33,756 bases of DNA from an uncultured Candidatus Peribacteria bacterium. GTDB lineage: Bacteria > Patescibacteriota > Gracilibacteria > CAZOKC01. A program made the translations under genes and the position numbers. Position 1 is the stretch's first letter. Each line of letters begins with the position of its first letter. The stretch is from the NCBI GenBank assembly GCA_964580335.1, contig CAZOKC010000001.1:7885-41640 (forward strand), in the 5' to 3' direction. The notes beneath the pieces are model-generated. The model saw only the letters and a list, made by a program, of their open reading frames with translations. It ran no database searches and was not told the origin of the DNA. This document shows, one piece after another, positions 20,975 through 24,745 of this stretch.

Positions 20975-23900
20975 TTATTTGTTTCTTTGTAATTTTAATT
21001 TTGTTTTTATATCAAATATTTCAATCTCTTTTTCAAAATCACATTTTTTTAAATAAGAATTTATTTCAGTAGTTAATGTTTCGGATTTTAATATTTCGAG
21101 CATATTTTTATCAAAATCAAGATCATCAATTTTATCTATACTTATAGTTATGCGATCTGAGATATTGAAATTTGCTTCTTTTCTAGCCTCTTGTATCTCT
21201 CTTATAAGATCTCTAAGTATACCTTCTTTTCTGAGTTCGTCTGTAATTGTTGTATCAAGTCCAACCAAGATTTCACCGAGTCCTTGGGCTTCGAGATTTC
21301 CTTTAGGTTCATACCTAAATTCGTATTCACCTGGATGTAAATTTTCTCCTCCTATTTCATAAATTCCTTCTCCTAAATCTTTGAATTTTCCTTGTTTCGC
21401 CAAGATAATTATTTCTTGAGTTTTACCTCCAAATCTTGGTCCTATTTTTCTTGCGTCAGGTGATAAACTTACATTTGCTATATTTGAAGCATTTTCTTCC
21501 CAAATTATATCTTTTACATTTAGTTCTTCTTTTATAACTTCTTCAAGTTTTTTCATTTCTTTAAATAGTTTTTTATTTCCTATTGCTATATGTGCACTTG
21601 GCAAAGGTTGTCTTACTTTTATATTATTTTTTGATCTAAGTAATAATCCAAGTGAAACAATTTCTCTTGCCGTGTTAGTTTCTTTTTCAAGGTCTTTATC
21701 GATAAGGTTATAATTTACAAGTGGAAAATGATCGAGATGTACTGATTCAAAAACTTTTGTATTAGGCCTTAATAAATCATAAATGTGTTCACTTAAAAAT
21801 GGGCAAAAAGGAGCAAGTAATTTATTTAAAGTATCAAGAACATACCACAGTGTTTCATAAGCTTCATTTTTGTCAGAATCATTTTCACTTTTCCAAAATC
21901 TTCTTCTTGATCTTCTTATGTACCAGTTATTTAATTTATCTAAAAATGGTGCAAATTCATCTGAAGCTTTTTGAAGATCGTACGCATATAATTCATCTGA
22001 GATTTTACTTATAAGTGTTTGAAGTTCCGATAATATCCATTTATCTAAAGGATGTTTTGGAGAAAGAAGAACAAATTCTTTTATTTGTCCATTTGCTGTA
22101 TGACCTTCCCAATGTTTTGGGTGGTTACCTTTACCAAAACCATAATTTAAAAGTATTTGTTCTAAAGCTCTAGTTGTGGATTTGTGAGTTGATAAAACAA
22201 CGGCTTTTTCATTTTTCTCAAGTATGCCATCAAGACCTTTTTTTACTCTTTTATAAAAATCATCCACATAACTTTCGCCAGTAGGATATGGAACTTCCCA
22301 ACTTTCCATATTTTTATTCTTAGCCAGAATTGGTTTTCTGTATTCTGCTCTTTCCTCTAAAGTTTTACCTTCAAAATCACCAAGGATTATTTCATTTAAA
22401 TCTTCGATTTTATTTACTTTAGTTTTTTTAGCGTTAGCAAGAGGAGTTACTGTTTCATAAGCTCTTTTTAAGTTGGATGAATATATCGAATCTATATCTA
22501 TTTTTGAAAGTCTTTCAGATACTTTTTTTGCTTGATTTTGACCTTCTTTGTTTAAAGATAAATCCAGACTACCTTGAAGTTTACCTTCATTGTTTAAGTC
22601 AGTAGTTCCGTGTCTTACAAGATAAACTCTTCTTATATTTTTTGGTGTCCATTTATCTATATTTGCATATGTTGTAAGGAATGAAAGAGAATTCCAAAGT
22701 GGTATCAAAATAGTTTTCAATTTTTCGTCTATTGCAGTATCTGTAAATTTTGCATTTTCTCCTTTTACTACAGGTGAATTTATAAGTGTAAATCTAAAAG
22801 CATCAACTCCTTTTGTATCAAAAAGGATTGTTGGATCTGTAAAATTTCTTTTTGATTTTGAAAGTTTTTTTCCGTCTTCTGCAAGTAGAAGTCCCATTAC
22901 TACTATATTTTTTGCAGGTACATCTTGAAAAATAGCAGCTGATTCTACAAGTAGTGTATAAAACCATCCTCTTGTTTGATCCATCGCTTCACTTATAAAA
23001 TCGGCAGGAAATTTTTTCATAAATCCTTTTTCATCTTTGAAAGGAAAATGATTTGAAGCGTAAGGCATGGCTCCAGATTCAAACCAACAATCAAATACTT
23101 CAGGTACACGTCTATAAGTAAGTCCATTTTCTTCCCAAACTATGTCATCTACAAAATGTTTATGAAGATCATCTATTTTTGTAACTTTCTTTTTTGTTTT
23201 TTCATAATATGGGTTTTTTGAAAGTACTTCGTCTCTTGATCCTATAAAAATTGTATCTTTTACATTTCCTTCTTTATCATATCCTTTCCAAATAGGAAGA
23301 GGTGTTCCCCAATATCTATTTCTTGAAAATGCCCAGTCCGGTGCGTTTTCTATCCAATTTGCAAACCTTAAATTTCCAGCAAATCCTGGAACCCAGTGGA
23401 TTTCTTTATTTTTTTCTATCATTTTTTCTTTGAGCTTTCCTTCGATTTTTATAAACCAAGTTTCAAATGCAAAATTAAGAAGTGGCGTATCACATCTCCA
23501 ACAAAGTGGATATGAATGGTTGTAAGTTTCTTTTTTAAAAAGTAGATTTCTTTTTTCTAAATTGTCACAAATTTCTTTATCGAAACTTGTATAATTATCT
23601 TTTGTTTTTACTGTTTTGCCTTTAAATTCTTTTACGTAAGGTTTTACGATTCCCTCGATAGTTATGTGCTGTATAAATCCAAGCTTCTCTTTTTTTTTTT
23701 TTTTTTAATCTTCGCTACCAAACGCAGGCGCTACGTGAAGTACACCTGTACCGTCAACCATAGTTACCACATCTGATCCGACTACTACATATTGTCTTCC
23801 TTCTTTTTCTGGAGTCACAGAAAATAATGGTTCGTAAGAAAGGCCGACAAGTTCGGAGCCTTTGTAAGTGTGAGCTAATTTTTCTTCAAAATTTTCACCT

Positions 23901-24745
23901 AATATTTTTTTAGCTAATTCAAAGGCGAGTATTATATATTCGTTCCCTTTATCGATTAAAACATAATCTTCCTTCTCATTTACCGCTAAAGCTATATTTC
24001 CAGGAAGAGTCCATGGAGTTGTCGTCCATGCCAGCATATAAACTGGTGATGGAAGGTTACTTAGATTTTCATAAACTTTCTGCGACTTTTTATCCGCACT
24101 TCCATTTATTTTAAATTTAGCTGTACAAGACAAATCTTGAATATCTTTATATCCAAGAGCTACTTCAAAATTTGACAGTGGAGTCGCACATCTTGGGCAA
24201 ATGTGCATAGGTTTATAGCCTTCGTAGATCAAACCTTTTTTATGAAGTTCTTTTGTAACCCACCATATACTTTCCATGTACCATGGCTCCATTGTTTTGT
24301 AATCATTATCCATATCTACCCATCTTCCAAGTCTTTCTATGACTTTTTGCCATTCGTCTGCGTATTTCAAAATCGTCGATCTACATGATTCGTTGAATTT
24401 ATCTACACCCATTTTTTCTATATCTTGTTTTCCATTTAACCCAAGTTCTTTTTCTTTTTCGTATTCGATAGGAAGTCCATGACAATCCCATCCCCAAACT
24501 CTTTCTACACGTTTACCTTGCATGGTATGAAATCTTGCGATTATATCTTTCACGGTAGAAATAAGTAAATGTCCATGATGTGGAAGCCCTGTAGCAAAAG
24601 GAGGTCCATCAAAAAATGAGAATGTATAATTTTCTTGTTTTTCTTCGATAGATTTTTTAAATGTGTCTTCTTTTTTCCATTTTTTAAGAATTTCTTTTTC
24701 TATTTTTGGAAAATCTGCTCTCGCTTCTATTTTTTTGAATGTCAT
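20975..24745 (-). CDS. ileS: Isoleucine--tRNA ligase (type 2), one frame of 1256 codons interrupted by a single in-frame TAA (23705-23707); carries an inserted histidine-phosphatase domain
   Basis: HIGH (PHHGHLL), editing-domain TTPWTLPGN and GTGVLHVAPAFGSED, and YNHSYPLCWRCDTPLL (in the untracked stretch 23423-23704). Also KMSKS (KLSKS), NWYIRRSRRRFW, and the type-2 C-terminal ..DELRKEGILRDLIREIQEARKEANF.. The track ORFs 23705-24745 and 20975-23422 are in the same frame, and the stretch between them is open. Confidence 0.9.
22052..22642 (-). other. Histidine-phosphatase (phosphoglycerate-mutase/CobC/SixA superfamily) domain embedded in ileS
   Basis: VYLVRHGTTDLN (RHG), SSNLKRAYETV (second Arg), ILGDFEGKT (acid) and VVLSTHKSTTRAL (distal His). 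This covers residues ~261-457 of the 815-aa track ORF. Confidence 0.75.

Follow-up and report, generated by a model that had tools for sequence, protein, structure and literature searches.

Split class I synthetases exist, the LeuRS alpha/beta of Aquifex aeolicus being one example. Draft genomes of uncultured bacteria, whether obtained as MAGs or from single cells, carry local errors of assembly or consensus, and homopolymer errors there typically consist of a 1-nt insertion or deletion, with a shift of the reading frame. Long A homopolymers also occur in needed genes of small AT-rich genomes: in Buchnera and Blochmannia the poly(A) tract separates two frames, and transcriptional slippage restores the reading and so rescues the gene (cited in PMC5009743; see also PMC3017870).

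The ileS gene described here resembles each of these systems in part. It shares with the Buchnera and Blochmannia genes a long A homopolymer in a gene that a small, AT-rich genome needs, but its two pieces lie in one frame and a TAA stands 5' of the tract. Like the split LeuRS of Aquifex, it consists of two open pieces of one synthetase in tandem; unlike an Aquifex-type split, the second piece is devoid of a start codon, the break falls away from a domain border and the arrangement is found in no relative. There is also a likeness to local draft-genome errors: the sequence belongs to a gapped draft of short scaffolds, one low-complexity spot interrupts an essential single-copy gene whose remainder is intact, and the same defect recurs elsewhere in the assembly. 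Whereas the usual homopolymer error changes the length of the sequence, here length is kept and 16–18 bases are all A, which points to substitution or overwriting rather than to a miscounted run.

The window, a stretch of 33,756 nucleotides from an uncultured Candidatus Peribacteria bacterium, derives from a draft assembly of 675,793 bases (676 kb) distributed over 45 scaffolds. The draft is ~80% complete, has a G+C content of ~30% and holds 77 runs of N, each 10–147 bases in length. On the minus strand the site reads GCG TTT GGT AGC GAA GAT TAA AAA AAA AAA AAA AAA GAG AAG CTT GGA, so that the A17 homopolymer is read as the last two bases of the TAA followed by five AAA codons. Re-reading of the sequence located the GAT TAA, its T and the A-run precisely as the initial annotation had described them, and the positions are collected in Table 1 with those of the other features discussed below.

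Table 1. Features of the interrupted ileS gene and further long A-runs of the assembly. Plain positions refer to the window; positions preceded by C and a number refer to the scaffolds of the assembly.
Feature	Position	Strand	Basis or remarks
A17 homopolymer (T17 on plus strand)	23690..23706 (C1:31574-31590)	-	Genome-wide run scan; suspected overwritten stretch
In-frame TAA	23705..23707	-	T at 23707; the two A's are part of the A17 run
ileS part 1, 346 codons: first half of the class I catalytic core, to motif GTGVLHVAPAFGSED	23708..24745	-	PF00133 (tRNA-synt_1), E 1.3e-66
ileS part 2, 909 codons + stop, frame as part 1	20975..23704	-	Pfam
His_Phos_1 (PF00300) domain within IleRS, outside the suspected artefact	22118..22627	-	Pfam E 1e-39, RHG motif
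A18 in leuS	C23:2459-2476		Reads MSYNF-KKKKKK-WRKKWEDSG
A16 in reverse transcriptase gene	C29:6926-6941		Reads PYLE-KKKKK-TSKINFG
A16 in ABC ATPase C-terminal domain	C45:54-69		Reads LEI-KKKKK-HEN

Apart from the stop, the gene is intact. The ORF at 23705–24745 encodes 346 aa in a frame identical to that of the downstream ileS reading, in agreement with the claim that both flanks of the stop lie in one frame, and the interval 20975–24745, when read through, comprises 1256 codons with a single internal stop. No further lesion was detected in the other 1255 codons, and strong Pfam matches are present on both sides of the stop; the view that the gene is otherwise undecayed is thus borne out. The second part supplies the remainder of the catalytic core together with a His_Phos_1 insert, the Anticodon_1 domain and DUF5915 (PF00133, E 9.4e-63; PF00300, E 1e-39; PF08264, E 1e-30; PF19302, E 4e-28). 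A scan of the 94 codons that follow the TAA confirmed that they contain no ATG, GTG or TTG, the first such codon being the ATG at 23422, and comparison with relatives established that this segment is open and consists of conserved IleRS sequence, both points having been made at the outset. A tblastn search across the assembly for a second ileS copy returned none: the assembly contains one ileS only.

The TAA and the adjoining A17 are interpreted here, with a probability of roughly 85%, as an error of the deposited sequence and not as a feature of the organism. In the organism itself, ileS is most likely continuous over about 1256 codons. The evidence comes from three directions: the run is an outlier in the statistics of its own genome, comparable runs recur at unrelated loci, and, for each run compared with relatives, conserved sequence of equal length stands in its place there.

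Genome-wide, A/T runs become rapidly scarcer with length: 2104 runs of length 6 are followed by 735 of length 7, 159 of length 8, 11 of length 9 and a single one of length 10. Past length 10 stand six isolated long runs of 12, 13, 16, 16, 17 and 18 bases, lengths 11, 14 and 15 not being represented at all. A log-linear fit made on run lengths 4–9 yields an expectation of 0.003 runs of 16 or more bases, against four observed, and this expectation is generous because the true decay steepens past length 7. The A17 of ileS is far beyond chance for this genome.

The codons tell a similar story. Within ORFs of at least 200 codons, 88% of lysines are encoded by AAA and the remaining 12% by AAG; AAG is present in six of the seven runs of four lysines, and one run of five is encoded as AAG-AAG-AAG-AAA-AAA. 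The only pure-AAA stretches of five or six lysines in this set of ORFs are those of ileS, leuS and the reverse transcriptase; the pure-AAA run of five in the ABC ATPase on C45 lies on a short fragment outside the set. As natural lysine runs are broken by AAG and the suspect runs are pure AAA, the long runs must have arisen by a process different from that which shaped the remaining sequence.

All four runs of 16–18 nt are located inside ORFs, namely ileS, leuS, the reverse transcriptase gene and the tail of the ABC ATPase gene, and the frame is kept on both sides of every one of them, even though the run lengths, save that of 18 nt, are not divisible by three. The runs in leuS, the reverse transcriptase and the ABC ATPase are probably the same artefact as that in ileS. 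Two of the six long runs lie no more than 70 nt from a scaffold end (C3:27-38 and C45:54-69); in a draft this heavily gapped their position speaks for the artefact reading, yet such an association would also be expected were the runs real. The two shorter members of the six have their own contexts. An A13 at C26:2633-2645 supplies the KKKK tail and the stop for an ORF of 645 codons that lies just upstream of obg, and an A12 at C3:27-38, 27 bases from the scaffold end, reads FFFF on the minus strand.

What the runs have replaced can be judged from relatives. The comparison of conserved residues covered the ileS, leuS and reverse transcriptase runs; the ABC ATPase fragment on C45 provides 73 residues of a variable domain before an N gap. 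For IleRS, 118 relatives were assembled as database proteins carrying the motif GTGxVHxAPxFGxxD. Counted from the Asp of this motif, an invariant Q-H follows at 12 residues in all 118 of them and likewise here, where the record reads D-[*KKKKK]-EKLGFI-QH. The six positions under T + A17 have the consensus Y/M-x-L/V-G-K/Q-K/R. The first of these was initially described as normally Tyr or Phe, a statement that needs correction: the relatives have Y in 61 cases, M in 35, L in 11, F in nine and A in two. The second position is occupied by E, N, Q or K. The third is hydrophobic in 114 of the 118 (L 78, V 29, I 7), and the fourth is G, S or A in 107 (83, 18 and 6, respectively). Lysine is frequent at the fifth (K 50, Q 23) and sixth (K 68, R 28) positions. 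Neither a stop nor KKK occurs at this site in any of 177 relatives, which comprise the 118 database proteins, nine same-class genomes and 50 metagenome loci.

The other two comparisons point in the same direction. The YNF-KKKKKK-W of LeuRS aligns gap-free with YNH-NEIEKK-W (PDB 3ziu) and YNP-HAIEAK-W (PDB 1h3n), and the run falls on an x-x-I-E-x-K-W pattern held by most of 27 same-class genomes. In the reverse transcriptase, PYLE-KKKKK-TS aligns gap-free with PYLV-IKEEK-TN and YHLK-ISEDK-TE of relatives with 50% and 41% identity. At all three runs, relatives have conserved non-lysine residues over an equal length. To judge from these alignments, the three runs appear to cover natively A-rich stretches composed of Lys, Glu, Ile, Leu and Gly codons.

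Most likely, some step of assembly, read correction or consensus calling put an A in place of every base along a part of ileS that was A-rich to begin with. The affected stretch would amount to about six codons, which in relatives specify Tyr/Met-x-Leu/Val-Gly-Lys-Lys. Length and frame would have been retained, a TAY (or TTN) codon becoming TAA and the codons after it AAA. The apparent stop would arise because the first affected codon begins with T, so that TAY or TTN reads TAA; the T of the TAA is probably genuine and would have opened a codon for Tyr, Phe or Leu. One length-keeping process of overwriting with A accounts for all the runs at once. Its technical cause can be sought in k-mer-based read correction or gap filling that was pulled towards an abundant all-A k-mer, such as that of Illumina read-through tails, or in undetermined bases stored as A under 2-bit coding; either could be responsible. 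It counts somewhat against this reading that the genome holds about 95 further A-rich 18-mers that are intact; the overwriting process must therefore have been selective, acting perhaps at spots of low coverage.

An assembly or base-call error was one of three options named in the initial annotation, the others being read-through and a genuinely split enzyme; it is the error option that has been strengthened, and the remaining two have gained no support. The form then envisaged for the error, a one-base change of TAT or TAC to TAA at the edge of the homopolymer, is not what the data favour: they make the entire A17 suspect, since it coincides exactly with the six conserved codons.

If the artefact reading is correct, overwritten stretches are present in a public draft not only in ileS and leuS but in two or more further genes. 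Gene callers will split or mis-translate the affected genes, and completeness or pseudogene counts for the lineage will be slightly wrong. The signature can be screened for in other drafts: isolated A-runs of 16–18 nt, with the frame kept and conserved residues replaced.

A real and recent inactivating allele, which would make ileS a fresh pseudogene or reflect a minority allele taken into the consensus, is improbable. The deposited record does read TAA + A17, and defective alleles are sometimes captured in drafts of uncultured bacteria. Against this, ileS is essential and present here in a single copy, and its other 1255 codons are without decay. The A17 would also need ~5 independent changes within 18 bases, all of them to A and one of them nonsense, and leuS and a reverse transcriptase must each have acquired the same pattern on their own. 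A fresh pseudogene is a possibility to be entertained only if the run is real.

Less probable again is that the tracts of 16–18 nt are real, so that an ultra-small uncultured bacterium has pure A-tracts within ileS, leuS and other genes, that IleRS is made by bypass of the UAA at the head of the tract through near-cognate read-through or through ribosome sliding or hopping on poly(A), and that loops of five to six lysines are tolerated where conserved residues would otherwise stand. Bacteria are not known to express genes in such a way. A programmed recoding event attracts still slighter credence: in this scheme ribosomes get past the UAA through read-through, hopping or sliding on poly(A), maybe combined with transcriptional slippage, and a full-length IleRS with a K-rich loop results. 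Long A-runs cause RNA polymerase to slip, endosymbionts tolerate them in genes (PMC5009743), and the frame 3' of the stop is already the correct one. Yet rescue by slippage requires frames that differ across the tract, and in ileS the two sides share one frame; moreover, no slippage product removes the stop, since the TAA is 5' of the run, a point that had been recognized from the beginning. TAA terminates 281 of 384 long ORFs in this genome, and a tRNA with anticodon UUA is absent from the 24 tRNAs found in an assembly that is only ~80% complete. No RNA structure is predicted downstream (fold energy -5.8 kcal/mol, z = +1.6). A genome-wide scan of single stops between long frames disclosed no other conserved gene with a comparable in-frame TAA, and the recoded product would place Lys at conserved hydrophobic and Gly positions. 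In the unlikely event that the runs are real, the production of an essential synthetase through a UAA and a poly(A) tract would constitute a new case of recoding.

A split IleRS, in which an N-terminal subunit of 346 aa would pair with a C-terminal one that has its own initiation, is hardly credible, despite the precedent of the Aquifex LeuRS and the fact that both pieces are intact here. The second piece would have to be initiated without an ATG, GTG or TTG over 94 codons, all of which encode conserved IleRS sequence. The break directly follows a conserved motif instead of marking a border between domains, and a split at this site was observed in none of the 177 relatives, a set that does not include close relatives. 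A changed genetic code in which TAA specifies an amino acid, for which the reading of TGA as sense in genomes of the same class (G021, G029 and G034, with 6–12 in-frame TGA codons in ileS/leuS) offers a parallel, is effectively refuted by stop usage and by the genome-wide scan of single stops: TAA predominates among the terminators, a start codon comes directly after most of the other single stops between long frames, and no suppressor tRNA was found among the 24 tRNAs.

Searches for the same or a sibling genome yielded neither. An exact two-anchor DNA pattern spanning the ileS site matched none of the metagenome contigs, and no identical entry was found for the upstream neighbour protein or for the 346-aa piece. 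The nearest protein relatives, obtained from a search of 5.8 billion proteins and a back-translated metagenome scan, have at most ~57% identity, and the nearest genomes in the collection searched belong to the same class only.

Stop codons in this class of bacteria display some diversity of their own. The ileS/leuS genes of several same-class genomes (loci L034, L036 and L043) contain 1–12 in-frame TGA codons, so that TGA is sense there; in the genome under study TGA is a stop and ends 40 of the 384 long ORFs. Single TAA codons between long frames that are not followed by an obvious start are present at C4:23018 (+), C40:5400 (-) and C28:1139 (+). Two of these three lie in Pro/Thr-rich, linker-like sequence, and the three codons could be gene ends, errors or real breaks.

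In the IleRS, the His_Phos_1 insert sits between the catalytic core and the anticodon-binding domain. In the paper collection searched, nothing links IleRS, histidine phosphatase and Patescibacteria. The insert is common to about half of the top 120 IleRS relatives: those that bear it are Patescibacteria proteins of 1130–1460 aa, whose name at NCBI is often just 'class I tRNA ligase family protein'.
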